DNA of 64,000 bases from a virus (IMGVR_UViG_3300028299_000132:1-64000), one strand, 5' to 3'. Shown: positions 5,048 to 50,932, counted from the first letter of the stretch. Program-made: numbers and translations. The notes: a model not told the origin generated them from the sequence alone.

Positions 5048-7225
5048 ATGAAGACAGCGTTGATAACAGGTGTGAGTGGCCAAGATGGGTCATACTTATC
5101 AGAATTTTTATTAGATAAGGGATATAAAGTATATGGGATTGTTCGTAGATCATCAGTTCCTGAAAACCAATCATATAGAGTTAATCATCTTTACGATAAT
5201 CCAAATTTTAAATTAGAATATGGTGATTTAGAGGATATTCCATCGTTAGTTCATGTTATTCAAAGAGTAAAGCCACAAGAAATATATAACCTAGCAGCTC
5301 AATCACATGTTAGAATTTCATTTGATGAACCAATATATACCTGTACCGCGAACGCGATTGGGACATTAAATTTATTGGAATCAATTAGAATGACAGATAC
5401 AACGATTCGTATGTATCAAGCGTCTAGTAGTGAGATGTTTGGAAATAATATAGATAGTGATGGATATCAAAGAGAAACAACACCTATGAATCCAGTTAGT
5501 CCATATGGATGTTCTAAAGTATTTTGTTACAATATAACTAGAAATTATAGAAATTCTTATGGATTATTTTTAACCAACGGTATACTTTTTAACCATGAGA
5601 CGATAGCAGGTTTTATGCCAATGATTTATAAAGAAAAAATAGATGGTGAGATTGATATAAAACCAATATCAGAAATTGTAAAATATCACATATCTGATAA
5701 AATGTTATTTGATGAAAATAATAAGAAATATCAAGGATTTAATGTTGATAAAGATTTATTTGTATGGGATAATAATAACTGGACAAAAGTAAAATACGCA
5801 TCATGTTATATACATGATATTGAAAATGATAATAAAAAACCAAAATTCATAGTGTCAAAAAATGCCGCGTATATGGCGAGTGAAAATCATGTGTGTATAA
5901 TGAATAATGGTGAGAAAGAATTTAAAGATATAGAAATAGGTGATCGTGTAAATATTATAAATTATCCAATTAATGATAACTTGAATTATGTGTTATCCGA
6001 AGAAGAATCTGAACTTATTGGATTTATTGTTGGTGATGGATATTTAAATAAAAATAAGAAATTGAGGTTAATATCTAAAGATCCAAATGATTTAGAAAAG
6101 TATTCTAAGTTATGGATAGAAATGGGTGGTACTGTTCATAAATATCAAGGTGTATCAGGATTCAATAAGAATGAAAAAATATGGTATTTTAATTTAAATG
6201 GTAATAAGGAATGGATTGATAAATATCTTTCGGATATTTATGATGAATATCATAAAAAAAGAATACCAAAAATTATATTAAATTCACCTAAAAACATACA
6301 ATTGAGTTTTTTGAATGGATATAATGATGCAGATGGTTTGAAATCAAATCCCTCTAAGTATAAATTTAGAAATTTTAAAACAAATTCAGCGACATTAGCA
6401 TCTGGTTTAATCTATTTATTAAAAAATACAACTAATCAAGAATATAATATAAATGTAGAATATATTTTTAAATATGGTGAAAATAGAATTTATTATTCAA
6501 TAAATATTTTAAGTGATTCTAATAAAGGCCAAAATCATAGAAATAATATTTTAAAATATGAAAAAGTGATTGAACTTTTAAATAAAGGATATTCACAGAG
6601 AAAAATAGAAAGAGATTATAAAATTAATAGAGGATTTATTAGGAAAATACAAAATGGATATATTCCAAATAATGGACATCATCTATCTATTGAAAATGAT
6701 AAAGTAAAAAAAATAATAGAAATGCATGATTATGATGGGTGGTTTTTTGATTTAGAAACGGAGAGTGGCACATTTCATTGTGGAATAGGACAAGGACATG
6801 TTCATAATAGCCCAAGAAGAGGTATTAATTTTGTTACAAATAAAGTATGTAAGATCGCGGTAGAAATAAAAAATGGTATATCAAATGAGTTGAAACTAGG
6901 CAACCTAGATGCTACTAGGGATTGGGGGCACGCGAAAGATTATGTTCGTGCTATGTGGATGATACTTCAACAGGAAAAACCAGATGATTTTGTTTGTGCG
7001 ACAGGAAAATCACATTCTGTTAAAGATTTAGTAAAATATGTTTTTGGAAAATTAGATTTAGACTGGGAGAAATATGTAACAGTTGATGAAAAATATCTAA
7101 GGCCAGAAGAATTAAAAGATTTAAAAGGTGATTCAACAAAATTAAGAAAACAATTGGATTGGGAACCAACATATACATTTGAAACTATGTTAGATGAAAT
7201 GATAGATTATTGGTTAAAAAAATAA
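5048..7225 (+). CDS. gmd: GDP-mannose 4,6-dehydratase containing an intein
   Basis: ALITGVSGQDGSYL, NLAAQSHV, QASSSEMFG, SPYGCSK, GILFNHE//SPRRG and RDWGHAKDYV motifs. Confidence 0.95.
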   Translation: MKTALITGVSGQDGSYLSEFLLDKGYKVYGIVRRSSVPENQSYRVNHLYDNPNFKLEYGDLEDIPSLVHVIQRVKPQEIYNLAAQSHVRISFDEPIYTCTANAIGTLNLLESIRMTDTTIRMYQASSSEMFGNNIDSDGYQRETTPMNPVSPYGCSKVFCYNITRNYRNSYGLFLTNGILFNHETIAGFMPMIYKEKIDGEIDIKPISEIVKYHISDKMLFDENNKKYQGFNVDKDLFVWDNNNWTKVKYASCYIHDIENDNKKPKFIVSKNAAYMASENHVCIMNNGEKEFKDIEIGDRVNIINYPINDNLNYVLSEEESELIGFIVGDGYLNKNKKLRLISKDPNDLEKYSKLWIEMGGTVHKYQGVSGFNKNEKIWYFNLNGNKEWIDKYLSDIYDEYHKKRIPKIILNSPKNIQLSFLNGYNDADGLKSNPSKYKFRNFKTNSATLASGLIYLLKNTTNQEYNINVEYIFKYGENRIYYSINILSDSNKGQNHRNNILKYEKVIELLNKGYSQRKIERDYKINRGFIRKIQNGYIPNNGHHLSIENDKVKKIIEMHDYDGWFFDLETESGTFHCGIGQGHVHNSPRRGINFVTNKVCKIAVEIKNGISNELKLGNLDATRDWGHAKDYVRAMWMILQQEKPDDFVCATGKSHSVKDLVKYVFGKLDLDWEKYVTVDEKYLRPEELKDLKGDSTKLRKQLDWEPTYTFETMLDEMIDYWLKK
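5600..6808 (+). mobile_element. Intein with LAGLIDADG homing endonuclease (403 aa) in gmd
   Basis: Insert splits the conserved NHE|SPRRG; ends HVHN before Ser+1; LIGFIVGDG and FLNGYNDADG motifs; block F FFDLET. Confidence 0.92.
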
Positions 7226-7232
7226 AACAAAA

Positions 7233-9146
7233 ATGATAAAAATATTATTATCAGATGATAAGGAATATATTTTAGAAACATTAGAAATGATTATAGAAGA
7301 ATATATCCCAAATTGTATAATATATAAATCAACTTCTGGAAATCAATGTATTGAATTAGCTAAAAAGTATAAACCAGACTTGATAATAATAGATTATTTT
7401 ATGCCAAAATTGAATGGATGTGAAATTTGTAAGATAATAAAGAATGATTACGAAATAAAATACATACCAATAATATTTATAACTGGTGAAAAAATTTCAT
7501 TAGAAGAAAGAATTGATGGACTAAATATAGGAGCGGACGCGTTCGTTTTTAAACCAATAGAAGATGTTGGTGAATTTATAGCTCAAATAAATGTTATGTT
7601 ACGCATAAAAAACATGGAAGACAAACTGAGAGAAAATCAAGAATTGTTATCATCAAAATATTCAAAATTATTTGAAAATATGATGGATGGATTCGCTTTA
7701 CACGAGATGGTTTTAGATGATAATGGAAATCCCATAGATTATATCTATATGGAGATTAATGAGTCATTCAAAAAACAGGTTGGTATAGAAAAGATTGTTG
7801 GAAAGAGTGTATTGGAATTATTTCCAGGTATGGATAGAGATTGGATTGATATTTATGGAAAAGTAGCGTTAAATGGTGAAGAAATTAGATTTGAAAGATA
7901 TTTTAAACCACTAAATAAATGGTTTTCCATAACAACATTTTCACCAATAAAGAATTTTTTTGTTACAATAAGTTCTGATATAACAGAAAAGAAGGAATCA
8001 TCAGAACAACTAAGAATATTAGTATCAAAATTAAATGAAGAAAAAAACAGAGCGGAAAAATCAGATAGATTAAAATCCTCGTTTCTCGCGAATATTAGTC
8101 ATGAAATTCGAACACCTTTAAATTCAATAGTTGGATTCTCTAGATTATTACTTATGGTTGGAAGGGGTGAAAGAAGAAAGTATGTAAATATAATAGAAAA
8201 AAATTCAGAAATGTTATTAAATTTAATAGATGATATAATAGATTTATCAAAAATAGAATCTAGACAGATAAAGTTAAGGAATGATAGATGTAATTTATTA
8301 GGAATAATAAATGAGGTTCATATGTCAAATACTAGTAAAGATGATGTTAAATTTTATGTAGATGAAGGTCTGACTAACACGGTTATATATACGGATGAAT
8401 TCAGATTAAAACAAATTTTAAATAACCTTATCACAAATTCTATAAAATTTACAGATGATGGACATGTTAAAATAGGATATAAGTTAGAACCAAAAAATAT
8501 ACTATTTTATGTTGAAGATACTGGAATGGGTATTTCAGAGAAAGATAAAGATTATGTTTTTGAAAGATTTACTCAGTTAAACGAAAAAGATAATAGAGAA
8601 TATGGTGGAACTGGTCTTGGATTATCCATTTGTAAAAAAATAGTTGACATTTTAGGTGGTAAAATTTGGTTTGAGTCTGAGGTTGGTAAGGGAACAACAT
8701 TTTATTTTACAATACCATCAGATTATGTTCAAAAGATAAATAATGAGTATGATAGAATTAAAAAGCAACAAAAGAAAAAATATAATTGGAAGGGTAGAAA
8801 AATTCTAATTATAGACGATGATGATTATAGTTCAATGTTAATATCAAGAATATTAGAAAAAACCAATGTTCAAATTAGTTCCGTGGAATCTGCGATTGAG
8901 GCGTTGGTTATGATAGATAAAGAAAAATTTGATGCTATATTATCAGATATAAAATTATCAGATATGAATGGATTTGAGTTAGTTAAGAGAATAAAAATAA
9001 AAACAAATATACCCGTTATCGCTCAAACCGCATACGCGATGATGGATAAACGATCCGAAGCGATAGAAAGTGGGTTTGATGATTATTTAATAAAACCTAT
9101 AGATACATATAAGTTAATAAATACATTAAGTAAATATTTTGATTAA
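7233..9146 (+). CDS. Hybrid sensor histidine kinase (REC-PAS-HisKA-HATPase-REC)
   Basis: N- and C-terminal receiver domains, H-box SHEIRTPLN, N-box NLITNSIKF, DTGMG and GGTGLGL. Confidence 0.93.
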   Translation: MIKILLSDDKEYILETLEMIIEEYIPNCIIYKSTSGNQCIELAKKYKPDLIIIDYFMPKLNGCEICKIIKNDYEIKYIPIIFITGEKISLEERIDGLNIGADAFVFKPIEDVGEFIAQINVMLRIKNMEDKLRENQELLSSKYSKLFENMMDGFALHEMVLDDNGNPIDYIYMEINESFKKQVGIEKIVGKSVLELFPGMDRDWIDIYGKVALNGEEIRFERYFKPLNKWFSITTFSPIKNFFVTISSDITEKKESSEQLRILVSKLNEEKNRAEKSDRLKSSFLANISHEIRTPLNSIVGFSRLLLMVGRGERRKYVNIIEKNSEMLLNLIDDIIDLSKIESRQIKLRNDRCNLLGIINEVHMSNTSKDDVKFYVDEGLTNTVIYTDEFRLKQILNNLITNSIKFTDDGHVKIGYKLEPKNILFYVEDTGMGISEKDKDYVFERFTQLNEKDNREYGGTGLGLSICKKIVDILGGKIWFESEVGKGTTFYFTIPSDYVQKINNEYDRIKKQQKKKYNWKGRKILIIDDDDYSSMLISRILEKTNVQISSVESAIEALVMIDKEKFDAILSDIKLSDMNGFELVKRIKIKTNIPVIAQTAYAMMDKRSEAIESGFDDYLIKPIDTYKLINTLSKYFD

Positions 9147-9153
9147 AATAGGA

Positions 9154-9504
9154 TTATTCTATTTCATTTTTTAATTCAGTAAAACTTGTTGAATCTATAT
9201 CAACATCATCTAATGTATCTATTATATCATTGATAGTTTCTATTATTCCATTTTTAAATATTAGAAATTCATCAGATTTCAAATAAAGAATTTTTAATTT
9301 ATTATTTATCCATTCAAATGGATTTTTATTCCCACATATTCTATTATATTTATCAATGTTGTTTATATAAATATCAGATATTCTATAAATAACATTTTTA
9401 TAAAATTCTAAAGAATCTAAAGCCTTACTCTCTTGATTTTTTTTTAAAAATTCTAATATAACTTGTGTATTTAAATCTAAAATATTAAATATTGAACTTT
9501 TCAT
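9154..9504 (-). CDS. Hypothetical protein
   Basis: ORF only. Confidence 0.6.
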   Translation of the reverse strand: MKSSIFNILDLNTQVILEFLKKNQESKALDSLEFYKNVIYRISDIYINNIDKYNRICGNKNPFEWINNKLKILYLKSDEFLIFKNGIIETINDIIDTLDDVDIDSTSFTELKNEIE

Positions 9505-9566
9505 AGATATTTTATTCTTTTATTATTAAATATACATTATTTTATAATTATTAAAAAATATTTTGA

Positions 9567-10070
9567 TTAATTTATTCCTTTATTAGACCAGATATTAAAT
9601 CCGTCTTTTTCTCCCTCATATTTATAATTGGATGATTGTGATAAGATTCTTATTATTTCTTGACGAGTAAACATATTTTCAAAAGTATAATTTAAATCTT
9701 CTTTGTTTATAAAAGATATTGGTTTTATATCTATGCCATAAATATTTAACATATTTGGTAAGTTTGAATATAATTCTTGCATTGATAATAATACAAGATT
9801 CTCTTTTATTTTTTCATTCATCTGATTTTCTTCTAGTACCATAACATTAAACGCGACACGATTGTTGTTTAGAATATCACCTGTTAAATCATTAACTTTA
9901 AATATATGATTTTTAGAGTCTTCCAAATCAATATAATCCTCATATGTGTTAAAGAAACTAGCTATAATGTTTTTATATGAATCATCCGCTGGTTCTATTT
10001 CAGTGAGAAATTCGCTGACTTTTATCCCAGGTATTACTATGCTTTCAAAATATTGTTCCCAATTTTTCAT
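9567..10070 (-). CDS. Hypothetical protein with leader MKNWEQYFES
   Basis: ORF with the shared N-terminal motif. Confidence 0.65.
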   Translation of the reverse strand: MKNWEQYFESIVIPGIKVSEFLTEIEPADDSYKNIIASFFNTYEDYIDLEDSKNHIFKVNDLTGDILNNNRVAFNVMVLEENQMNEKIKENLVLLSMQELYSNLPNMLNIYGIDIKPISFINKEDLNYTFENMFTRQEIIRILSQSSNYKYEGEKDGFNIWSNKGIN

Positions 10071-10438
10071 TATATCATCCCTTTTTCTTTTAGATATTCC
10101 GTTACTTTTCTAACAATAAACTTTGGATACATTTCTCTTTCTTTCATTGGTATTACATAAAGTATTTTATATCTATATTCTTCAAAATCAAATTTTTCAC
10201 CTACTGTTAATATACCTAATGATATCATTATTCCCTCCATAAATCCTAACATTCTCCAACCACTAATTGAGTTGTCAATAACATTTCCAGATGGACCAGG
10301 TTTTGATATATCATCTTTATAAAACCAATATTTCTTTGATAATCCTTGTTTGTATTTATTTAATGTATTTAATAAGATAGTATCCAATTCATCATCAGAT
10401 AGTGCTTCGTTTATAAAGAAATTTTCAAATTTTTTCAT
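10070..10438 (-). CDS. Hypothetical protein with leader MKKFENFFINE
   Basis: ORF with the shared N-terminal motif. Confidence 0.65.
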   Translation of the reverse strand: MKKFENFFINEALSDDELDTILLNTLNKYKQGLSKKYWFYKDDISKPGPSGNVIDNSISGWRMLGFMEGIMISLGILTVGEKFDFEEYRYKILYVIPMKEREMYPKFIVRKVTEYLKEKGMI

Positions 10439-12503: not shown

Positions 12504-14090
12504 TTAATTTTTCATTTCAAATTTTAAATTACCAGAATTATATACTCTTAGATATTTTAATTCATCCATTATTTCACATTCTGTCTTATTTTTATCATAT
12601 CCTTCCCTAACTAATTTGTCCTTACGAAAATTGAATCTACTATTTCTATTTAGAGTTCTATCAAAATAATAATAGTTTGGTTGTGTTTTTCCTTTATATT
12701 GAAATCCTAATTTTTTATATAAATCACCTACACTCCACGAACGGTCTGCGTATGTTGTAATTATTTTTGGTGAATAATTTTCAATAAAATATTTAAACAA
12801 TTTTTGTGCACCACCAATAACATTGGTATTCAATTTTGAACAAAATCTTAATAATTCATATTCACCCTCTTCTGTACTCTTTTTCCCAATTGAAACTCTT
12901 CTTTTTCCAAACGTCATTAAACTCACTAACTCTTCGTCATAAAAAAGACCAATTTTCACACTTGAGCCAATAAATCCCTGAATATGATTTTTTTCTAAAA
13001 ATTCACGAATTAATTTATTATCATCAATTCCATGAATTTCACATTTTCTTCCATATATTTTATTTCTAGTTTTTCCTAATTTATTTAATATCATTGATTT
13101 AACAATCTTTTCTTTATTGAACCACTCATCTTCATAGATATGAATTAACTGAATTCCTTTTTCTTCACATAATTCTGTTTTTTCTAGATGATAATTTCTA
13201 TCCTTATATAAATCAGAATGCCAGTATATTCCATTAAATTCAAATGCTAATTTTAAATTAGGGATATAAATATCCAACTCTTTCTTTATTAATGACTGAT
13301 TATTTTCCTCTATATCACCATTATAATTATCTTTAATAAAATTTAATATATTTATTTCTTGTCCAGATTGTTTTATTCCTATTAATGGATTACAAATAGT
13401 ACAATATATTAATTTATTTCTATTTCTTTGGTACAAATTTTTAGCTGTTATATTAAAATAGTGACCATTATCACATCTTATATCTATTGTACGATCATTT
13501 TTAAGAATGAAGTTTTTTATATTATATTTTTCTAATTTTTCTAAAGCGTCTTTCTCCCATCGTTTATAAGTTTTTTTATAAAAATCTATAGTTTTACTAT
13601 AGTGTTCAACACCATATCTTTCCATATTAGTATTCTTTCTTCTATCAATTACTTTTTTATTTTCTAATGGAAATTCAACACCATATCTTTCCAAATTAGT
13701 TTTCTTTATTTTGTTTTTTACATCATCTGATAATAATGAACACTCAAATCCATACTTTTTTAAATTTGTTTTCTTAACTTTTTCTTGTATTTCTTTTACT
13801 TTCATAGGATTATCAACACCATATTTATTTAAATAGGATTGTTTTTTTGAACAGTTATGACATAAAAATCTTCCATATTTAAATAAATTTTTATTGTACT
13901 TATAATATGTAATTACTCTTTCTTTTCCACAATCAGAACATATAGATGTTATTCTTACTACTGAACCATTAGATAAATTTTCTGGTTTTATTTTAATAAT
14001 ATCATTTATTTTAACATCAAATCCATTATTTATATAATGTTTTATGTTTCTTTCTTTTACTATTATTTTTAATTCTTTTTCTTTTATCAT
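12504..14090 (-). CDS. Putative free-standing homing endonuclease (Zn ribbon, KKTNLxKYG repeats, PD-(D/E)XK-like nuclease, GNAT-like C-terminus)
   Basis: CxxC pairs, repeats and ELDIYIP...AFEFNGIYWH; paralog of 34450..36270. Confidence 0.75.
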   Translation of the reverse strand: MIKEKELKIIVKERNIKHYINNGFDVKINDIIKIKPENLSNGSVVRITSICSDCGKERVITYYKYNKNLFKYGRFLCHNCSKKQSYLNKYGVDNPMKVKEIQEKVKKTNLKKYGFECSLLSDDVKNKIKKTNLERYGVEFPLENKKVIDRRKNTNMERYGVEHYSKTIDFYKKTYKRWEKDALEKLEKYNIKNFILKNDRTIDIRCDNGHYFNITAKNLYQRNRNKLIYCTICNPLIGIKQSGQEINILNFIKDNYNGDIEENNQSLIKKELDIYIPNLKLAFEFNGIYWHSDLYKDRNYHLEKTELCEEKGIQLIHIYEDEWFNKEKIVKSMILNKLGKTRNKIYGRKCEIHGIDDNKLIREFLEKNHIQGFIGSSVKIGLFYDEELVSLMTFGKRRVSIGKKSTEEGEYELLRFCSKLNTNVIGGAQKLFKYFIENYSPKIITTYADRSWSVGDLYKKLGFQYKGKTQPNYYYFDRTLNRNSRFNFRKDKLVREGYDKNKTECEIMDELKYLRVYNSGNLKFEMKN

Positions 14091-14193: not shown

Positions 14194-15309
14194 ATGTTAG
14201 TTCAGGATAATGAAAAATTTAACAGATTGATTATCGGTGGAAGAGAATTACTGATAAAAAAGAAATTTCAAGACTCGTATAAAAATTATAAAACCGCGTT
14301 AGATATAAGTCCTGATAATGAATATGTTAAAGAACAAATAAAAAAAATAGAAAAGTATTTTTATCTAGAAAAAAAATATACAGAGAAAAAAGCGGAGTAT
14401 GATTATAACAAAGCGATGCAACTCGCTCTCAAATTAGTTCTAAACGGAACATATGGAGCGTTCGCGAATAAATACTTTGTCCTGTCTAATGCGAAAATCG
14501 CGAACGCGATTACTTCAATGGGTCGTAATGTTATTCAATATATGTTAGAAAATATAGAAAATTATTTTTATAATGAATGGCATAAAGATGTAGAATCACA
14601 TAAATTACTTGGATTGGAATATTTAGTACAAAATAAAAATGATAATAATTATTATTTTCTTAATAGAAATTACGAATCAATTGACAGACCATTCTCACAA
14701 TTCAATACTGGTGATATGCACAATGATATTCTAAAATCTAGAAATATTCCAATAAGTAGATTAAAGAAAGTTGAAGAATATGAAGTTGGTGATTGGAAAA
14801 TTTTATATGAATATCATATTTTTGATTTTAGTAATGTAAAACCATTAGATAATAATCCAGGTTGGGAAATGATAGATGAAAAAAGAATATCAAATCCAGA
14901 TGAGATATTTAAATCGTATACAGGTGAGAATCATTTATTAATTTATGGTGATACAGATTCAATTTTTTCTGATACACAGATAGATACAGATAAAGGAATA
15001 TATACTATCGAAGAATTATATAATAATAATATTAAAAATGGTTCCGCTGGAGTTACATTAAAAGGTCATGAATCTGTTAATTGTAAAGAAAAGGTTTTAA
15101 ACTGGGATAATGATTTATATTATGCACAAGTTAAAAGGATTATAAGACATAAAGTATCAAAACCAAAATGGAAGTTAAAAACAAAAACAGGTAAAGAAAT
15201 AATAGCAACTAATGATCACTCAATGATTGTTTTTAGGTCTGGTAAAAAACTAGAAGTCAAACCATCTAATATTTTAAGAACTGATAAAATATTGGTTGTA
15301 AAAAAATGA
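14194..15309 (+). CDS. Family-B DNA polymerase fragment (motif B to YGDTD) fused to the N-half of a split intein
   Basis: QLALKLVLNGTYG (motif B), LIYGDTD, then intein block A SIFSDTQI and block B IIATNDH, ending at a stop. Confidence 0.92.
   Translation: MLVQDNEKFNRLIIGGRELLIKKKFQDSYKNYKTALDISPDNEYVKEQIKKIEKYFYLEKKYTEKKAEYDYNKAMQLALKLVLNGTYGAFANKYFVLSNAKIANAITSMGRNVIQYMLENIENYFYNEWHKDVESHKLLGLEYLVQNKNDNNYYFLNRNYESIDRPFSQFNTGDMHNDILKSRNIPISRLKKVEEYEVGDWKILYEYHIFDFSNVKPLDNNPGWEMIDEKRISNPDEIFKSYTGENHLLIYGDTDSIFSDTQIDTDKGIYTIEELYNNNIKNGSAGVTLKGHESVNCKEKVLNWDNDLYYAQVKRIIRHKVSKPKWKLKTKTGKEIIATNDHSMIVFRSGKKLEVKPSNILRTDKILVVKK
14959..15306 (+). mobile_element. Split intein N-half (IntN, 116 aa)
   Basis: Begins with Ser right after YGDTD; TIEELY, TxDH block B; no C-terminal HN. 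Confidence 0.9.
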
Positions 15310-15350
15310 TATTTTTAATTTTATATATAGTTTAGGAAGGTGTTGTAATT

Positions 15351-16445
15351 ATGCTCAATAATATTACATTTATAGAAAAATCAAAAAAAATTCATGGAGA
15401 CAAATATGATTATTCTTCAGTTGAATATGAAAAATCAAATATAAAAGTTAAAATAATTTGTAAAAAACATGGTGTATTTTTTCAAACACCTTCTGCTCAT
15501 TTACAAGGAAGGGGGTGTGTTATTTGTGGGGGGAGTAAAAAATATACAAATGATTTATTTATTAAAAAATCAAAAAAAATTCACGGAGACAAATATGATT
15601 ATTCTTTAGTTGATTACAAATCAATGAAAAGTAAAGTAAAAATTATTTGCAGAAAACATAAGATTTTTGAACAAAAACCAGAAAGTCATCTAAATGGTCA
15701 TATCTGTAAAAGGTGTTATAATGAGAATAGAACAATGACAGATGTGAAATTCATAAAAAAATCAAAAGATCTTCACGGAGATAAGTACGATTACTCATTA
15801 GTCGATTATAAAAATTCTAAAACTAAAGTAAAGATAATCTGTAAAGAACATGGTGTTTTCGAACAGGTTCCATCCGCTCATTTAAGTGGACAAGGATGTA
15901 AATATTGTGCAGATATCACTAAAAGATTAACTATAATGGATTTCATAAAAAAATCAAAAGAGATTCACGGAGATAAGTACGATTATTGTAATGTAAAATA
16001 TGTTAATAATTATACAAAAGTTGAAATAATATGTGATAAACATGGTAGTTTTTTCCAATCACCTAATTATCATATGCTAGGGCAGGGGTGCCCAAATTGT
16101 CAAATAAGTCTATTGGAGAATAATATTAAAAAATTATTAGATAAAAATAATATAAATTATGAACAACAAAAAACTTTTGAGGATTGTAAAAATATTAATA
16201 AGTTACCGTTTGATTTTTACTTAATAGATTTTAAAATATGTATAGAATGTAATGGGAAACAACATTATAAACCAGTAAAATATTTTGGTGGAGACAAAAC
16301 ACTAAGTTATATACAAAAAAATGATAAAATTAAAAAAACATTTTGTATAGAAAATAATATAAAATATATTGAAATTAGTTATTTAATGTTAGAAAATGAA
16401 ATAGAAAAAATTATAGATGATGTAAAAGATGGAATATTATTTTGA
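15351..16445 (+). CDS. Free-standing endonuclease between the split-intein halves
   Basis: Four repeats of FIxKSKxxHGDKYDY...KVxIICxxH...CxxC and a C-terminal PFDFYL...IECNGKQHY Vsr/PD-(D/E)XK-like domain. Confidence 0.85.
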   Translation: MLNNITFIEKSKKIHGDKYDYSSVEYEKSNIKVKIICKKHGVFFQTPSAHLQGRGCVICGGSKKYTNDLFIKKSKKIHGDKYDYSLVDYKSMKSKVKIICRKHKIFEQKPESHLNGHICKRCYNENRTMTDVKFIKKSKDLHGDKYDYSLVDYKNSKTKVKIICKEHGVFEQVPSAHLSGQGCKYCADITKRLTIMDFIKKSKEIHGDKYDYCNVKYVNNYTKVEIICDKHGSFFQSPNYHMLGQGCPNCQISLLENNIKKLLDKNNINYEQQKTFEDCKNINKLPFDFYLIDFKICIECNGKQHYKPVKYFGGDKTLSYIQKNDKIKKTFCIENNIKYIEISYLMLENEIEKIIDDVKDGILF

Positions 16446-16557
16446 TGAAGTAGAAAGTTGTGAATTGATAGGCGGATTTGAAGAAGAATATGTATATGAT
16501 ATAGAGGTGAATGACGATACTCACACATTTATTGCAAATGATATTTTGGTACACAAT
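16429..16557 (+). mobile_element. Split intein C-half (IntC, 43 aa)
   Basis: Blocks F and G ending in HN, followed by Ser+1. Confidence 0.92.
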
Positions 16558-17409
16558 AGTCTGTATATCAGTTATTTACCAATTATTAAATCCGTTGGAT
16601 TTACTGGAAACGAACTAGAGTTTATATTACATGTTGATAAAGTTTTTGTAAAGAAACTATTTAAAAAGTTTTTGGATGAGTACGCGGAACCATATGATGT
16701 TGAGAATGAACACGATTTTGAATTAGAGACAATCAATAAGTCTGCGATACACTTAGAGAAAAAACATTATATCAATAACGTTGTATGGGAAGATGGTATA
16801 TTTTATGATAGTTTATCATATTTCTTCCCAAAAGGAATTGAGATCGTTCGTTCATCTACACCATCTTTTGTTAGAGGAAAAAATCAACAAGGTGGAATTT
16901 GGGATTTCATAAGATATTTATTTTCCAATCCAGATAATTTAGATATAAGAAATGTTTTGAGATTAGTAAAGGAACAGAGAAAAGCGTTTGAAATGGATGA
17001 TATAGAAAACATCAGTATGAATACATCATGTACGAATTATGATGATAAGGTTGTTAATGATGTAACTAGCATAGAAGTAACAAAAGGTTCACATTTTTCT
17101 ATTAAAGCGGCCGCTTTTCATAATTATTTGTTGAATAAAAATTCTGAATATAAGACAAAATATGATATGATAAAATCTGGTAAGATAAAATATTATTATT
17201 GTAATAGTTCATTAAATAATGTTTTCGCTTATATGAGGAGTTTTCATCCATATGAAATAACTGAAAAAGAAGGAGTTATAATTGATTATGAGGTTCAATT
17301 TGAAAAATGTTATTTAACATTGGTGAATAAATTTATAGAACCACTAGGACTACCTATGATAAACAAAAGATTATCAGTATTAAATTCACTGTTTGATTTC
17401 AAAAAGTAA
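16429..17409 (+). CDS. C-half of a split intein fused to the C-terminal palm/thumb fragment of family-B DNA polymerase
   Basis: VYDIEV...HTFIANDILVHN|SLY; then FELE, KKHY and KGIEIVRSSTP polB motifs. Confidence 0.92.
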   Translation: MEYYFDEVESCELIGGFEEEYVYDIEVNDDTHTFIANDILVHNSLYISYLPIIKSVGFTGNELEFILHVDKVFVKKLFKKFLDEYAEPYDVENEHDFELETINKSAIHLEKKHYINNVVWEDGIFYDSLSYFFPKGIEIVRSSTPSFVRGKNQQGGIWDFIRYLFSNPDNLDIRNVLRLVKEQRKAFEMDDIENISMNTSCTNYDDKVVNDVTSIEVTKGSHFSIKAAAFHNYLLNKNSEYKTKYDMIKSGKIKYYYCNSSLNNVFAYMRSFHPYEITEKEGVIIDYEVQFEKCYLTLVNKFIEPLGLPMINKRLSVLNSLFDFKK

Positions 17410-22501: not shown

Positions 22502-23905
22502 ATGAGTAAAATAGTTGACACTTTATTTGATGGTATATTAGTATATGATGACTCTAATCATATACAGAAAGAGGAAGTTGTTGAAGAAACTAAATCAAAG
22601 ACAGATTACAAGAAATACACATCAAAATTTTTCTTTCCAAAAAAGAAAGAAGAAGAAATAAATGAGGATGATGATACTCCGAGATATAAATGTGATACAA
22701 TGTCAACTATGAGTGTATCTGGTTTTATTGATTTATTGGAAGATAATGGATATAAAAGTGGTGTAAAGAAATGGAATGTTTTTATACCAAATGGATATAA
22801 TGATATTGATGAAAAATTAAAAAAAGTAAAAATATCCAATGATGAACAATTTATATTCGCTATTCCAGGGTGTGATAATCTAGTTAGTAAATATAATGTT
22901 TGGAAGAGTTTAGTGGATAAATACGGCCGTGAAACCGCGTCAACCATCGTTCCAGAATCATTTTTACTAGATAATAAAGAAGATGTTGAATTATTAAAAA
23001 AATTTGATAATCAGAAGTTTATCCTAAAGAAAAAGAAACAACGAAAACTTGGATTAAAATTAGTTGATAAAATTGAAGATATTTCAAAACTAAAAAAAGA
23101 AGAATACACAATAGCACAAAAATACTTAAAACCATTTCTAGTTAATGACAGGAAAGTAAATCTTAGAATATACTTACTTATTACATTGAAAAACAATGAA
23201 ATAACTATTTATGTTTCAAAATTTGGTTCCTGCATTTATACAAAACACGAATATGATCATAGTTCGTGTGATTTTGAAAAAAATATCACATCATATAATA
23301 TGGATTTATCAATCTATGAAGAGAATCCATTGACACTAGAACAATTAAAAACTTATCTGAAAAATAATGGGTTCGACCACATTGATATTTTTTCTAAAAT
23401 AGAGAATAAGATAAAATTGTTTATTTGTGCGATAAAAGATCAATTGGGTGATGAAAAATTTAATAAAAATATGTGTTTTCAGGTTTTTGGTATGGATTTT
23501 ATCCTAGATGAGAATTTAGACCCATTTCTATTAGAATGTAATAAAGGTCCAGAGATGAAACCAAAGGTAACACAAATAGAAGATCCAGATGATATTACAG
23601 AGGATATGATAAATCAAATTAATATTCTTAAAGAAACATTAAATAATGGTGATGATGGCATTGACAAAATCAAAAAGATTAAATCTTGTTACATAAAAAT
23701 TTATAAAGGATTTCCAAAAAATGTTTCAAGAACTGTTATAATGGAAAGAATTGAAAAATTCTATAAAGAAGAAAAAGAACTTGATTCATATCCAAATGGT
23801 TATATAACAGGAAATGGAATTAAAGTTCAAAAAGATACATTACATATAATGAATCTCATAGAGAATAATGAAAATAATGGATTTATAAAAGTTGATGTTA
23901 AATGA
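22502..23905 (+). CDS. Tubulin-tyrosine ligase / polyglutamylase family ATP-grasp enzyme
   Basis: PESFLL, FILKK...QRKLG, IAQKYL.PFLVNDRKVNLRIYLL and FQVFGMDFILDENLDPFLLECNKGP. Confidence 0.85.
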   Translation: MSKIVDTLFDGILVYDDSNHIQKEEVVEETKSKTDYKKYTSKFFFPKKKEEEINEDDDTPRYKCDTMSTMSVSGFIDLLEDNGYKSGVKKWNVFIPNGYNDIDEKLKKVKISNDEQFIFAIPGCDNLVSKYNVWKSLVDKYGRETASTIVPESFLLDNKEDVELLKKFDNQKFILKKKKQRKLGLKLVDKIEDISKLKKEEYTIAQKYLKPFLVNDRKVNLRIYLLITLKNNEITIYVSKFGSCIYTKHEYDHSSCDFEKNITSYNMDLSIYEENPLTLEQLKTYLKNNGFDHIDIFSKIENKIKLFICAIKDQLGDEKFNKNMCFQVFGMDFILDENLDPFLLECNKGPEMKPKVTQIEDPDDITEDMINQINILKETLNNGDDGIDKIKKIKSCYIKIYKGFPKNVSRTVIMERIEKFYKEEKELDSYPNGYITGNGIKVQKDTLHIMNLIENNENNGFIKVDVK

Positions 23906-34449: not shown

Positions 34450-36270
34450 ATGAATGCTATAGAATTAATAAAAGAAAAGAATAATCGTGGTGGAATAATG
34501 TACAATGAAAGATATCTTATGAAAAATTATCTAGATATCTATGAGTTAATAATAAGTTTTTGTAATAAAAATAATTTAGATGATATTTCATTTAATAGAA
34601 AAGTTTATCATTTTGTTAATGACATAAAAGAGAAAAATATAAAGTGTTCTAATCCTTTTTGTGATAATTATGTAGAATTTAAAAATTCTAATATTGGTTA
34701 CAGACGATATTGTTCAAATAAATGCGTTGGTAGTGATCCAAAAATTATAAAAATAAAAGAGAAAAAATCTTTAGAAAAATTTGGAACTCGCACACCAGCT
34801 GAATCAGATATAATTAAGGAAAAAATTATAAAAACTAATTTGGAAAAATATGGAAGGAAAGTTCCGATACCAATAAATGAAATAAATAAAAAGTTACAAG
34901 AAAAATATAATGTTGAAAATATCTCACAAATAGATTATATAAAAAATAAAGTAAAAGAAACAAAATTATTAAAATATGGTGATTCTGGATATAATAATTA
35001 TGAACAAATAAAAAAGACCAATAAAGAAAGATATGGATATGAGTGTTCTTTTCAGAATGAATTAGTTAAAGAAAAAATAAAGAAAAAATTTCTTATAAAG
35101 TATGGTTATGAACATCCTTCTAAGAATGATATAATAAAACAAAAAACGAAGGAGACAATGTTGAAATTATATAATTGTGAAAATCCTTCACAATCAGATT
35201 ATATTCAAAAAATAAAAAGGATTAATAAAATAAATAAAACTTTAAAAAGATATGATTATTTAAATATCATTGATGTTGATTATGATAATAAAATATTTAA
35301 ATTTGAATGTGTTAAAGGACATAAATATGAAATTTCTTTTGAATTGTTTCAAAATAGAAAAAGAATAGATACGGAATTATGTATTAAATGTAATCCAATA
35401 AAGTCAAATAGTGGGCAAGAAATTCAGTTACAAGATTATATAAAGTCTAATTATGATGGAAAAATAAGTTTAAATGATAGAAATATTGTTGGTAAAGAAT
35501 TAGATATTTACATTCCTGGACTTAAACTAGCGTTTGAATTTAATGGTATTTATTGGCATAATGAATTATATAAATCCCCTAATTATCATTTAAAAAAGAC
35601 AGATCTGTGTGAAGAAAAAGGAATACAACTAATACATATATATCAAGATGATTGGATTTATAAAAACGATATTGTTAAATCAATGATATTAAATAAGTTA
35701 GGAAAAACCGAAAATAAAATTTATGCCCGTAAAACAGAAATTCGTGAAATAACTGATAATAAATTAATCAGAGAGTTTTTAGAAAAAAATCATATTCAAG
35801 GATTTATTGGAAGTAAAATAAAATTAGGATTATTTTATAATGAAGAATTAGTTAGTTTAATGATTTTTGGTAATTTAAGAAAAAATTTAGGAACAATTAA
35901 AAATGAGAACCATTATGAATTATTGAGATTTTGTTCCAAATTAAATACAAATGTTGTTGGTGGGGCTAATAAATTATTTAAGTATTTTATTAATGAATAT
36001 AAACCAGAATCTGTAATAAGTTACGCGAATCGTTCATGGACTAAAACTGATGATAATCTATATCTAAATTTAGGATTTAATTTTGTTCATAAAACACAAT
36101 CAAATTATCATTATGTAGTTGATGGAGTCAGAAGAAACAGATTTTTATATAGAAAGGATGTTTTGATTAAAGAAGGATATTCTCCAGATAAAACAGAAAG
36201 AGATATTATGTTTGAGAGAGAAATTTATAGAATTTATGATAGTGGGTGTTTGAAATTTGAATTTATTTAA
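34450..36270 (+). CDS. Putative free-standing homing endonuclease, paralog of 12504..14090
   Basis: YCSNKC, KTNLEKYG repeats, ELDIYIP..AFEFNGIYWH and YELLRFCSKLNTNV. Confidence 0.75.
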   Translation: MNAIELIKEKNNRGGIMYNERYLMKNYLDIYELIISFCNKNNLDDISFNRKVYHFVNDIKEKNIKCSNPFCDNYVEFKNSNIGYRRYCSNKCVGSDPKIIKIKEKKSLEKFGTRTPAESDIIKEKIIKTNLEKYGRKVPIPINEINKKLQEKYNVENISQIDYIKNKVKETKLLKYGDSGYNNYEQIKKTNKERYGYECSFQNELVKEKIKKKFLIKYGYEHPSKNDIIKQKTKETMLKLYNCENPSQSDYIQKIKRINKINKTLKRYDYLNIIDVDYDNKIFKFECVKGHKYEISFELFQNRKRIDTELCIKCNPIKSNSGQEIQLQDYIKSNYDGKISLNDRNIVGKELDIYIPGLKLAFEFNGIYWHNELYKSPNYHLKKTDLCEEKGIQLIHIYQDDWIYKNDIVKSMILNKLGKTENKIYARKTEIREITDNKLIREFLEKNHIQGFIGSKIKLGLFYNEELVSLMIFGNLRKNLGTIKNENHYELLRFCSKLNTNVVGGANKLFKYFINEYKPESVISYANRSWTKTDDNLYLNLGFNFVHKTQSNYHYVVDGVRRNRFLYRKDVLIKEGYSPDKTERDIMFEREIYRIYDSGCLKFEFI

Positions 36271-37366
36271 TTATTTCATTTTTAAACTCATTTTTTAATT
36301 TCAAAAATATTTTAAATATTTTTATTTCCGAATCATTTAATTTTGTGTCTGTCCAATATCCAGGGTGTTTTTGAATTGTTGAATCATCTAGTTTCTTTTT
36401 GAAATCTATAAGCGTATGTACATTATTTTCACCAGTATTTCGGTCACTAGTCAAAATTATATCATTATAATCAATCATAAGAAATGTATACCCATCTTGT
36501 ATTTGTTTAAATTCAGCTATATATGAATTATTTTTTATTTTTTTATTTAAAATAACAACCCAGAAATACCCATCTATGATATGTTGGTTGTATATTTTCT
36601 CAGATATAGTACACCAGTATGGGTATTTTATTATATTCATTGATTCATAAGTGAATGGTTGATAAATCAACCATTCATCATCTTCATAATATATTTTTAT
36701 ATCATTTGATTTTTTTAATTTTGATATATTATCTGCACTTATTAATGATTCAGTGCCTCTAACATATTTTATCCATTCTTTAGGAGTCTCAAACATAGAT
36801 ATTTTACCTCTCAATAGACCAATATCTATATTATCAATAAATCTTTTTTTATCAAATCGTCCAGGATTAAATAGAACATTTCTAAGATTAAAAAAATTAT
36901 CTTTCTTCCTATCCTTTAATTCTTTTTTTAAAAATCCAGGAGCCCATTTATCTATAAATTTATTTGTATCTATATCTTTTTTAATGTTGTTTATATCTAT
37001 TATAAGAGAAGAATGATAATTATCTATCTGTTTAATATATTTATCTATGTCTATTTTAATATTGTGATTAACAATTAAATCAATACACCTCATTATGTTA
37101 TCTAATATAGATTTCTTATCTCTTCCATTACGATTATATAATTCTAGATATAATAATCTAGTGAACAAATATAAATATCCAAGTTTACCTAAAGATTTTA
37201 AATTATTTTTTATTATTGAGTATATTTCTAAAAAATTCTTCCATTCCTCATCTGTTTGTAAATACCTACCCTCCATCCCACCGTGTTTTGATGTCCCTTT
37301 AGGTCTATTATTTACAAATTTTTCAGCTTGCTGTAAATTTTCAAATATTTTATAATCTTTTATCAT
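36263..37366 (-). CDS. Hypothetical protein with leader MIKDYKIFEN
   Basis: Shared leader; WLIYQPFTYES...WCT motif. Confidence 0.65.
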   Translation of the reverse strand: MIKDYKIFENLQQAEKFVNNRPKGTSKHGGMEGRYLQTDEEWKNFLEIYSIIKNNLKSLGKLGYLYLFTRLLYLELYNRNGRDKKSILDNIMRCIDLIVNHNIKIDIDKYIKQIDNYHSSLIIDINNIKKDIDTNKFIDKWAPGFLKKELKDRKKDNFFNLRNVLFNPGRFDKKRFIDNIDIGLLRGKISMFETPKEWIKYVRGTESLISADNISKLKKSNDIKIYYEDDEWLIYQPFTYESMNIIKYPYWCTISEKIYNQHIIDGYFWVVILNKKIKNNSYIAEFKQIQDGYTFLMIDYNDIILTSDRNTGENNVHTLIDFKKKLDDSTIQKHPGYWTDTKLNDSEIKIFKIFLKLKNEFKNEIIK

Positions 37367-38595
37367 AGATATTTAGACATTAATTTTAATAGTTCTCCTC
37401 TATTTATTGGTTTTGATATGTACTCATTACATCCTAATTTCATCATACGGTCTTTATCATCCATGTACGCGAACGCGGATTGAACTATGATTGGTATATT
37501 ATTTTTATTACCCCTTATTATTTCTATGATTTTATCACCATCAATATCTGGTAATCTTATATCTAACAATAATAAATCATATTTTTTATTTTTTACCATT
37601 TCTAAACATTCCTTTCCTGTTTTAGCCCAATCTAAATTACATAATGTTGAATGTAATATTTCTCGTATTAGATTAAAATTATCTTTTATATCCTCAGTAA
37701 TAAGTATTTCTTTATGGATAAAATCATAATCAATTAACTTTTCAGATTTTTCTATTTTTTCCTCACTTACTTCAACTGGTAAAATAAAATAAAATTCTGT
37801 TCCTTTATTTAGTTCTGATTTTACATAAATTTTTCCACCAAGTAATTCTATTATTCCTTTTGATATTGATAATCCAAGTCCAGTTCCTTTTAAATATTCT
37901 TTTCTATTAACTTGGTAAAATCTATTAAAAATTTCTTCTTGATCTTCTTCACTTATACCAATCCCAGTGTCTTTAACATAGAATTTTATATTATTATTTT
38001 CTACAATTTCACATCCATATTCAATAAATCCTTTATCCGTGAATTTTATTGAATTACTTATTAGATTATCAATCACTTGTTTTAATCTAGTTCTATCTGA
38101 AATAATATTACAATCATCTAAATCTTCTGGTAAATAATATAATAATTTTATTTTTTTATTTAGTAATTTTTGATTTATTGAAAACGATTCATATATTTCT
38201 TCAATTAAATTATATAAAGAAAATGATATTTTTTCTAATCTTAACTCACCGACTTCTATTTTAGAAAAATCAATTATATCATTTATTAATGACATTAATT
38301 GACTCCCATTTTTATTTATAACATCTAGATATTTTTTTATTTGTTGTTCATTGAATCCATTTGTTGTTAATAATTCAGAAAATCCTATTATACTATTCAT
38401 AGGAGTTCTTATTTCATGACTCATATTCGCTAAGAACATTGATTTGAGTCTATCGGATTTTTCAGCTTTTTCTTTTTCTTCTTTTAATCTTTCGTTTTTC
38501 TCTGTTAACTCCTTAATAATTTCTCTTAACTCTAATTCTAATTCTCTAATCTCATTTTCTTTCTTATGTTCAAGAAATTCTTTACCATTAGCCAT
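37363..38595 (-). CDS. Hybrid histidine kinase (HisKA-HATPase-REC) with no evident sensor domain
   Basis: SHEIRTPMN, NLISNSIKF, DTGIG, GTGLGL and a C-terminal receiver (LLDIRLP). Confidence 0.92.
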   Translation of the reverse strand: MANGKEFLEHKKENEIRELELELREIIKELTEKNERLKEEKEKAEKSDRLKSMFLANMSHEIRTPMNSIIGFSELLTTNGFNEQQIKKYLDVINKNGSQLMSLINDIIDFSKIEVGELRLEKISFSLYNLIEEIYESFSINQKLLNKKIKLLYYLPEDLDDCNIISDRTRLKQVIDNLISNSIKFTDKGFIEYGCEIVENNNIKFYVKDTGIGISEEDQEEIFNRFYQVNRKEYLKGTGLGLSISKGIIELLGGKIYVKSELNKGTEFYFILPVEVSEEKIEKSEKLIDYDFIHKEILITEDIKDNFNLIREILHSTLCNLDWAKTGKECLEMVKNKKYDLLLLDIRLPDIDGDKIIEIIRGNKNNIPIIVQSAFAYMDDKDRMMKLGCNEYISKPINRGELLKLMSKYL

Positions 38596-49506: not shown

Positions 49507-49827
49507 ATGAACGATAAGAAGAAACAAGTTATGGAATTATTAAATTTAGCGTTTGTTGACAACTATGAATTTTTTAGAGATACAATTGATAAGATAAATC
49601 TTTTGTTTAAAAAATATAAAATAGATTACAAATATGATTATAATTCTTTTTGTAGAGAATATATTCAAAAATGTATGATTGTTATTGATGAGAATCCAGA
49701 TATAGATATATCTGATAATAAATATTTTTTAGTATATGGTGCGATTGCCGCGAGTATGGTCTATGATAAAGAACAGGAAGACAAAGAAAAAAATAATAAA
49801 AAGAATGAATCTACTGATACCGAGTGA
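49507..49827 (+). CDS. Hypothetical protein
   Basis: ORF only. Confidence 0.55.
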   Translation: MNDKKKQVMELLNLAFVDNYEFFRDTIDKINLLFKKYKIDYKYDYNSFCREYIQKCMIVIDENPDIDISDNKYFLVYGAIAASMVYDKEQEDKEKNNKKNESTDTE

Positions 49828-50932
49828 AAAAGTTAATGAAATTTTAGAAAAACTAATGAATTTCTATTCTAAAGTTCCAACTATACAAGACTATTTTCTA
49901 GAGAGAAAAAGAGAAAAAGTAAAAGATATTGATTATGAGAAATTTACAGTTGATTTCTTTAATGATAATACGATTCGACCAAAAGATATGGATATATCAG
50001 TTGATTTAATTAATTCTACTATATTTAATAATTCTGTTCAAATAATAACATCTCTTCCACTAGAATCACAAATAGGTAGACAGATGACGATAGGTGTTAA
50101 AGAAAACAACACAAATAAATATCTTGGTTTTATAAGATTATCATCACCTGTTCTGACAGTTAAACCTAGAAATGAATTTTTCGGCCAGACTGTTACACCA
50201 AAAATGGTTAATCGTTATATGATAAACGGAGCGGTTATTGTACCTGTACAACCTTTTGGTTATAATTATCTTGGTGGAAAATTGTTAGCGTTGGTATGTT
50301 GTTCTCGTGATATTATTAATATGTTTAATAAAAAATATGATATGGATCTATGTTTTATGGAAACAACATCATTATATGGTGATATCAAGGGAGTCTCTCA
50401 ATATGATGGATTAAAACCATATATAAGATATCATGGTATGACAGAATCTAAATTATTTTTATTTCCAAATGAGGATGTTTATTATGAAATAAGAGATTAT
50501 ATGAGAAAATTATATGGTGAAGAAAAATGGAATGGTAGTCTAGTGGATCCAAAACCATCTGGTCCTAAAATGAGAGAATATACTAAAGTTATTCAAATAT
50601 TAAAATTTCATTTGAAAGAATATAATAAAGATAAATTGGATGAGTTTAATAAGTTTATAGAAAATTCAATGAGATCAAAAACCAAAAAACGATATTATTA
50701 TTCAATGTTTGGATATGATAATGTTAAAGAATACGTTCTATCTGATGGAAAAATAGATTTAATAAAAAGAGAAAATTTTGATAATTATGAGTTAGATAAT
50801 TTAATAAAATGGTGGAAAAATAAATCTCAAAATAGATGGGAAAAATTAAATGAAGAAGGAAAAATCAAAAATGAATTAGAAATATATACTACTGAAAATA
50901 TTGATACAAAAAATCATAATATAATAAGATGA
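49805..50932 (+). CDS. DUF4338/DruA-like protein
   Basis: GR...LGFIRLSSP, VPVQPFGYNYLGGKLLAL and ETTSLYG...SQYDG. Confidence 0.7.
   Translation: MNLLIPSEKVNEILEKLMNFYSKVPTIQDYFLERKREKVKDIDYEKFTVDFFNDNTIRPKDMDISVDLINSTIFNNSVQIITSLPLESQIGRQMTIGVKENNTNKYLGFIRLSSPVLTVKPRNEFFGQTVTPKMVNRYMINGAVIVPVQPFGYNYLGGKLLALVCCSRDIINMFNKKYDMDLCFMETTSLYGDIKGVSQYDGLKPYIRYHGMTESKLFLFPNEDVYYEIRDYMRKLYGEEKWNGSLVDPKPSGPKMREYTKVIQILKFHLKEYNKDKLDEFNKFIENSMRSKTKKRYYYSMFGYDNVKEYVLSDGKIDLIKRENFDNYELDNLIKWWKNKSQNRWEKLNEEGKIKNELEIYTTENIDTKNHNIIR

Follow-up and report, generated by a model that had tools for sequence, protein, structure and literature searches.

A probable three-piece DNA polymerase in a megaphage contig, fractured by a split intein and a Vsr-like endonuclease gene

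In some phage genes of DNA metabolism a split intein occurs together with a free-standing, often Vsr-like endonuclease gene, an arrangement termed 'fractured genes' in the parts of Dassa et al. (2009, NAR 37:2560) on which we draw; within those same parts, the gp43 polymerases are cited as genes that are split by homing endonuclease genes and are free of inteins. We have analyzed a locus of the fractured type in the family B DNA polymerase gene (polB) of an uncultured virus. The locus occupies positions 14194-17409 of IMGVR_UViG_3300028299_000132:1-64000, a stretch of 64,000 nucleotides (nt) that is referred to here as the window. It was singled out by an original prediction, made from the sequence alone, as a natural split intein at the polB YGDTD|S site with a free-standing endonuclease gene between the intein halves, and this much is borne out by where the open reading frames (ORFs) lie and by Pfam Intein_splicing matches in both halves. 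Judging from homology and residue conservation, we consider it highly probable that this is a three-piece megaphage polB, fractured by a split intein and a Vsr-like endonuclease gene, and trans-spliced.

The same layout is present in the GenBank annotation of the Tenacibaculum phages PTm1 and PTm5 (AP019524/AP019525), where ORF-239 is an 'intein-containing split DNA polymerase precursor', ORF-240 a 'VSR endonuclease' and ORF-241 a 'DNA polymerase'. PTm1 shares with the window the insertion site, the intein allele and the gene order, and its polB is likewise in three pieces. Over a stretch of 139 amino acids (aa) that spans the motif C flank and the intein N-half the two are 50% identical, with a nearly identical core from RHKVSK to TDKIL, and the C-halves have the pattern MEY.FDE.ES...ILVHN|S in common. 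Two differences stand out: in PTm1 the N-terminal polB piece is no more than about 2 kb away on the upstream side, separated by two ORFs, and the PTm1 endonuclease (261 aa) can be aligned with the one in the window solely at the nuclease motif.

On the biochemical side, naturally split class-1 phage PolB inteins of the Ser1/Ser+1 kind are represented by Aes123 PolB1 (PDB 9HTH), from T4-like Aeromonas phages, and by CP21 PolB1, LCGC14 PolB2 and GOM-OPS-1 PolB2. Aes123 PolB1 trans-splices in vitro (PMC11923092). The CP21, LCGC14, GOM-OPS-1 and PolB16 inteins are characterised tools, and the native N-extein of PolB16 also ends in GDTD. In inteins of the Aes123 type the break falls at the endonuclease-insertion position and gives halves of about 120 and 39 aa, and the alignment with 9HTH takes in a KH/RH NX motif and a T-x-D-H motif. 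Their chemistry is described as 'cysteine-less', whereas the two intein halves in the window each contain one non-catalytic Cys, and the homology is distant. Further afield, the part of the Neq Pol literature used here describes the family B polymerase of Nanoarchaeum equitans as assembled via a natural split intein; it differs in being archaeal and thermophilic, in having halves that are unlinked in the genome, and in having no endonuclease gene between them. A polB break of another kind, at the finger tip, produces gp43A and gp43B in the T4-like phages 25, 31, 44RR, 65 and 133; these pieces co-purify and are active (Petrov and Karam).

The original prediction also presented the two halves as a new candidate orthogonal split-intein pair that gates phage replication. 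The claim of novelty does not hold, since the same allele and layout are annotated in PTm1 and Ser1/Ser+1 PolB split inteins are already characterised tools; for the gating of replication no support was found. The arrangement is in fact widespread and already recognised. At least 380 protein clusters in public data (90% identity) carry this N-half, and most are 200-380 aa long, as in the split form. What the present locus adds is an enzyme in three pieces with an unlinked first piece, together with an unusually complete series of allele states in one clade.

Anatomy of the locus and the split intein

The locus consists of three ORFs on the plus strand, located base for base where they had been predicted. 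ORF1 (14194-15309, 371 aa) begins with the middle piece of polB, or N-extein (14194..14958, 255 aa), which comprises the finger tip, motif B (KLVLNGTYG) and the palm up to motif C. The product reads ...HLLIYGDTD and then passes into the Ser-initial N-half of the intein (14959..15309, 116 aa), which ends at a TGA stop (15307-15309). Read-through of this stop would gain nothing, because an in-frame TAA follows three codons later. A spacer of 41 nt, which contains the element TTTATATATA and a GGAAGG Shine-Dalgarno-like run, separates ORF1 from ORF2 (15351..16445, 364 aa), the free-standing homing-endonuclease gene. ORF2 is in a different frame from ORF1 and ORF3, which share one frame. The ATG of ORF3 (16429-17409, 326 aa) sits 17 nt inside the 3' end of ORF2. 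ORF3 opens with the intein C-half (16429..16557, 43 aa), reads VHN and then SLYISY, and continues as the polB C-extein (16558..17409, 283 aa), with the Ser+1 that completes motif C, the remaining palm and the thumb. Pfam profiles cover ORF1 with DNA_pol_B (profile 147-255) and Intein_splicing (profile 7-95), and ORF3 with Intein_splicing (profile 117-155); the C-extein matches the PHROG 262 DNA polymerase at positions 580-854 of 856. A free-standing endonuclease ORF thus stands between the two intein-half ORFs, on the same strand, as in a fractured gene.

The N-half matches the Aes123 structure 9HTH (E 3.3e-9, 39.8 bits), in an alignment that begins at the same DTD junction. The residues needed for splicing are conserved throughout 26 loci: Ser1 directly after YGDTD, the N3 (block B) motif T-x-x-H (TNDH, intein residues 84-87), YVYD in the C-half, and the C-terminal LVHN followed by Ser+1 are all invariant, and the NX motif, RH at intein residues 63-64 and aligned to the KH of 9HTH, is R/K-H in every case. 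H-F-I, also in the C-half, is invariant in 20 loci. An NX His preceded by Arg or Lys is specific to Ser1 inteins (PMC10189870). By these motifs the intein is assigned to class 1, in the Ser1/Ser+1 (oxyester) subgroup. The break that leaves 116 and 43 aa falls at the endonuclease-insertion loop, in the same position in 21 split loci, and the cis relatives are continuous across it, as expected of a naturally split intein broken at the canonical site, for which halves of about 100-120 and 35-50 aa are usual. A net charge of +12 in the last 55 residues of the N-half faces one of -13 in the C-half; complementary charges of this kind would fit the electrostatic capture step described for split inteins.

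The ratio of nonsynonymous to synonymous substitutions (dN/dS) among 199 split-split pairs is ~0.19, equal to that of the cis forms and approximate because dS is near saturation (~1.2), and points to purifying selection on the intein. For a predicted complex of the N-half with the C-half the score was 0.85, while the best of 3 controls had 0.00. Of 80 solved complexes, 58 attained that mark, as did 2 of 110 mismatched pairs; these counts are rough, since the alignments were self-supplied. In the models the runs agree in at least 93% of contacts, the partner has a predicted local distance difference test (pLDDT) of at least 80, and both splice junctions lie in the interface. Since split-intein complexes have already been solved, likeness to them may drive the score, and the pass may reflect that likeness and not be independent evidence. 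The original prediction had motif C rebuilt only by protein trans-splicing. With the homology to Aes123, the invariant residues, the purifying selection and the supportive model, trans-splicing best accounts for the union of motif C and the thumb in one chain. As to orthogonality, cross-reaction of the intein halves with those of close relatives would be expected.

A polymerase in three pieces

ORF1 had been taken for the front of polB. It starts instead at the finger tip, just before motif B, with the exonuclease domain and motif A encoded elsewhere. ORF1 residues 42-128 align to RB69 gp43 523-607, and in all 32 relatives examined, including those that are intein-free, the ORF for this C-terminal part of the polymerase (the C-part) likewise has its start at the finger tip. 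Exactly one separate exonuclease/motif-A gene of about 495-510 aa is present in each of three near-complete relatives (640, 675 and 243 kb), placed 50-120 kb from the C-part and on the opposite strand from it in two of the three. In the 640-kb relative, residues 163-485 of the 493 in this N-terminal piece align to RB69 188-505, including the RKxHK finger helix. There is no intein at the finger-tip break. The exonuclease/motif-A and motif-B/C/thumb portions are therefore separate genes by alignment, divided between the two finger helices just as in gp43A and gp43B. The two systems differ in spacing: the gp43A and gp43B genes of T4-like phages are 2 bp to 3 kb apart, whereas those of the three near-complete megaphage relatives are unlinked. 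The polymerase is probably built from three polypeptides, with one non-covalent join and one trans-spliced join. The largest known phages would then tolerate an essential replicative polymerase made from three gene products.

Compared with RB69, ORF1 has an insertion of ~110 aa between motifs B and C (residues ~130-245, window ~14580-14930), bounded by query residue 128, which corresponds to RB69 607, and query residue 248, which corresponds to RB69 616. The insertion is common to two relatives (L003 and L004) and is much shorter in PTm1 and many others; no family match was found for it. The finger-tip N-terminus of the C-part (ORF1 residues 1-60, window 14194-14380, and also in L041 and L043) resembles a TPR-type helical hairpin, and one database relative (P0073) has a precomputed TPR_1 match. 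Speculatively, such a hairpin might help the unlinked N-terminal piece to assemble with the rest, as an assembly module.

Directly upstream of the polB middle piece lies a DUF7487-type homing-endonuclease-like gene (12504..14090, minus strand, 528 aa), which matches Pfam DUF7487 and the PHROG 3339 'homing endonuclease' (E 1e-130). A second copy is present in the window at 34450-36270 (+). The product combines a zinc ribbon and repeats with an E-F-N-G..W-H nuclease motif, and has an additional C-terminal domain of ~200 aa. In most relatives, at least 10 loci, homologues with 48-58% identity and 528-606 aa adjoin the C-part at its 5' end, in either orientation and with intein-free loci among them, and there are several copies per locus; upstream placement is seen in L004, L006, L010, L012, L014, L015, L025, L028 and L037. 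The DUF7487 gene is a syntenic neighbour outside the intein, and may be the scar of an endonuclease that made the finger-tip split. In the 640-kb relative, an endonuclease of the ORF2 type (L117, 2251-3390, plus strand) stands divergently beside the unlinked N-terminal polB piece, with four zinc-finger repeats and the motif F-D-F-Y...I-E-F-D-G..H. In this clade, then, every polymerase piece has endonuclease genes beside it.

The endonuclease and the weighing of explanations

ORF2 combines four treble-clef zinc-finger repeats (Pfam DUF4379 treble clef), a feature added to the fractured genes in the covered parts of Dassa et al. (2009), with a C-terminal nuclease domain (about 16068-16442, plus strand). 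It matches the phage endonuclease families PHROG 559, 681, 9084 and 7140. When ORF2 is compared with 14 endonucleases encoded in the gaps of relatives, 15 sequences from two families, D49, E60, G63 and H66 never vary, and at least 90% have D86. The D-to-E spacing of 11 is as in Vsr, and the conserved D/E/H/D residues would correspond to Vsr D51, position 62, H69 and D97, the Vsr-like (EDxHD) motif.

The original prediction gave the endonuclease gene a motif of its own at 15320, and this is probably a real control element. TTTATATATA (15320..15329, plus strand) lies 21 nt upstream of the endonuclease start codon. It occurs 8 times in the window where 4.5 copies are expected, and half of these copies (4 of 8) are ~20-30 nt upstream of a listed ORF start. 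An element of the TATATATA type is present between the N-half stop and the endonuclease gene in at least 12 related loci and with both endonuclease families, and the promoter-like element thus probably travels with the endonuclease gene. Control elements that arrive with the endonuclease gene at other loci are described in the covered part of Dassa et al. (2009). In 15 of 17 loci the C-half ORF begins before the endonuclease ORF has ended. A scan for terminator-like sites was negative, and a sigma-70 scan is uninformative in DNA this rich in AT.

The mechanism that we propose is as follows. The first polymerase piece, which comprises the exonuclease domain, motif A and the first finger helix and is about 495 aa long in relatives, would join the rest non-covalently at the finger tip. 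The Ser1/Ser+1 intein would have been broken at its canonical endonuclease-insertion loop by the ORF2 gene, which may bring its own TATATATA promoter-like element and whose 3' end runs past the start codon of the half downstream. The N-half, by its basic C-terminal part, and the acidic C-half would associate and fold into one HINT domain, and trans-splicing via oxyester intermediates would join ...YGDTD to SLY..., free the intein halves and leave one covalent chain from motif B to the thumb. During co-infection the selfish endonuclease would spread the cassette into endonuclease-free or intein-free alleles. The anatomy of the locus, its homologies, the conserved residues, the selection on the intein and the population of alternative alleles are matters of observation, and on them we consider that the locus is real and is probably a functional fractured polB. 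Splicing activity, the activity and target of the endonuclease, promoter function and the non-covalent assembly with the first piece are what we infer from them.

Several points weigh against this reading. Wild-type Aes123 PolB1 splices only about 30% in vitro (PMC11923092), and natural split inteins can be inefficient. The near-saturated dS blurs the measure of selection. The first piece was not found for this genome: a search of the whole 98-kb contig from which the window is taken turned up neither exonuclease domain nor motif A, in a contig that makes up only ~12% of the genome expected. For ORF2 the Vsr-like assignment is based on motifs together with a weak match of the nuclease-domain profile, to AbaSI alone (E 0.0054), and a single-sequence PDB search with ORF2 gave no meaningful match. 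The N-terminal cleavage domain of AbaSI is one that we take to be Vsr-like.

The low in vitro efficiency of Aes123 also counts in favour of an explanation in which the intein halves merely dock the polymerase pieces non-covalently, or splice very inefficiently, and a three-chain enzyme retains the intein. Precedents exist, since the finger-tip-split gp43A/B and split NrdA function without covalent joining. In this case, however, a folded 159-aa HINT domain would sit in the beta-hairpin of motif C at the catalytic aspartates, and docking would not require all the splicing residues (Ser1, NX His, TNDH, HN and Ser+1) to be invariant in 26 loci; we regard it as improbable. Nor is it at all likely that the locus is a decaying, non-functional remnant, broken by a selfish endonuclease in a phage that is replicated by another polymerase. 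That the N-terminal piece is missing from the contig and that the neighbourhood is crowded with selfish endonuclease genes would agree with decay, but all the pieces are open, motifs B and C are intact, and dozens of contigs retain these pieces, with an intein dN/dS of about 0.2. Moreover, each of the three near-complete relatives has exactly one exonuclease piece elsewhere, and the same layout is found in PTm1, a cultured and viable phage.

A cis-intein could also arise if the halves were joined before or during translation, by a group I or II intron carrying ORF2, by recoding of the stop codon or by frameshifting. ORF1 and ORF3 are in the same frame, and Vsr-like endonuclease genes do occur in group I introns according to the covered part of Dassa et al. 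(2009). We give such joining a very slim chance. Between 14000 and 17600 no Rfam family matches at E <= 1, the 41 non-coding bases between ORF1 and ORF2 and the overlap of ORF2 with ORF3 leave no room for a ribozyme core, and RNA folds around both junctions are no better than those of shuffled sequences. Recoding would have to pass the TGA of ORF1 and then the in-frame TAA, the frame of ORF2 is a different one, and the halves of relatives can themselves differ in frame; relatives without the endonuclease still hold a stop and a new ATG. The thought that the stop is an artefact of assembly or sequencing, and the true gene a contiguous intein, comes from the metagenomic origin of the contig, and deserves next to no weight. 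Records of the exact ORF1, ORF2 and ORF3 proteins come from JGI, Logan and ENA, with 2-4 contigs per protein and the identical ORF1 product of 371 aa on 3 contigs, and 20 other split loci, in separate IMG/VR records, stop at the same intein position; an assembly error at the ORF1 stop is for these reasons very unlikely. A whole endonuclease gene of 1.1 kb between the halves is also hard to account for as an artefact. Protein trans-splicing is thus still the reading that we prefer.

Allele states among relatives and the source of the window

Scans of IMG/VR yielded 32 distinct related loci, and the comparison with relatives that the original prediction had called for brought to light both intein-free and contiguous-intein alleles of polB. 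The site is empty, with YGDTDS uninterrupted, in 6 loci, and holds a contiguous mini-intein of 159-170 aa in 5. A split intein with an endonuclease of the ORF2 type is found in 4 loci, the window included, and one with a second endonuclease family in 11, one of which has extra ORFs in the gap; this second family (366-400 aa) looks unrelated to the first, has the same nuclease motif and gave no Pfam match. Split inteins also occur with a 127-aa endonuclease remnant (1 locus, L037), with only 76-210 nt between the halves (3 loci), and with a gap that contains an opposite-strand TnpB of the IS605 type (1 locus, L011). The intein halves are intact where the endonuclease has been lost (L027, L029 and L030) or reduced to the remnant in L037, and the relatives that lack an endonuclease retain the stop and the new ATG between the halves. 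The N-half stop codons of relatives are TAA in 12 cases, TGA in 8 and TAG in 1, and in some relatives the two intein-half ORFs are in different frames.

These states are intermingled on the extein tree, which calls for at least 11 changes. On the intein tree the contiguous forms are each nested separately, with 5 changes between cis and split, and there is good support for such sister pairs as L024 (cis)/L026 (split) and L017 (cis)/L011 (split); the trees were made with fast methods and the support values are approximate. Loci whose C-exteins share only 30-65% identity have intein halves that are 60-88% identical, and the intein and extein trees are broadly congruent. The high identity of the inteins would reflect either recent homing or unusually strong conservation. 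We lean, by a little more than an even chance, towards the view that a single Ser1 intein allele has been caught at every stage of the proposed gene-breaking cycle within one megaphage clade, in a polymerase that the finger-tip split had already divided into unlinked genes. The same slight preference applies to a part of that view, namely that at least 5 independent switches between cis and split took place on the intein tree, some of them between near-identical polymerases.

If independent switches did occur in situ, the clade would be a natural experiment on intein splitting and possibly on re-fusion; it would also be a library of hundreds of Ser1/Ser+1 split inteins, some of them, as in L026, free of cysteine. 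Split inteins of the Ser1/Ser+1 kind that function with no cysteine chemistry are scarce and sought after as tools for protein ligation, and recent papers describe only a handful (Aes123, CP21, LCGC14, GOM-OPS-1 and PolB16). The present locus and several hundred relatives extend this family, and natural cis/split pairs could show which changes accompany splitting. The series also documents how rapidly selfish endonuclease genes turn over at this one site. Current concepts are left unchanged: the 'fractured gene' model of 2009 is illustrated with a fuller series of intermediates.

Two of the loci have features of their own. The split intein of L026 (8343-8693, 9932-10060) has no cysteine in either half, and the contiguous intein of L024 (8343-8825), of nearly the same sequence, is also cysteine-free, so that the two form a natural cis/split pair. 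In L011 (IMGVR_UViG_3300037067_004891) the gap of 2.1 kb holds the TnpB gene at 8940-10133 on the minus strand, with OrfB_IS605, Cas12f1-like TNB and HTH matches; in L017, a close relative of this locus, the mini-intein is contiguous, and in L019 the site is empty.

The window is the first 64 kb of a 98-kb virus contig in IMG/VR with a GC content of ~25%, which CheckV rates at ~12% of a complete genome. The C-extein is 59% identical to LR756501/LR756503, from an uncultured phage of 735 kb, and also matches other uncultured phages of more than 460 kb as well as Lak phages. In PHROGs the polB pieces fall into DNA polymerase families of phages. PMC9723777 treats LR7565xx and LR745206 as megaphages. 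By these matches the source of the window is a megaphage, a relative of the uncultured LR7565xx phages of more than 630 kb. A giant eukaryotic virus was suspected at first, on account of the 25% GC, the 12% CheckV completeness and an intein in a GDP-mannose dehydratase. It was ruled out by the matches of the polB pieces to RB69 gp43 and to PHROG phage families, and by best matches to uncultured megaphages and to Tenacibaculum phage PTm1.

The dehydratase intein just mentioned is the second in the window and is contiguous. It lies in an ORF of 725 aa (5048-7225, plus strand) for a sugar-nucleotide enzyme, GDP-mannose 4,6-dehydratase, whose profile is matched in two stretches with a LAGLIDADG_3 match between them. 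The window also encodes two hybrid histidine kinase/response-regulator proteins (7233-9146, plus strand, and 37363-38595, minus strand) with HisKA, HATPase_c and Response_reg domains, as well as a tubulin-tyrosine-ligase family protein (22502-23905, plus strand) and a DruA-like (Druantia) protein (49736-50932, plus strand).

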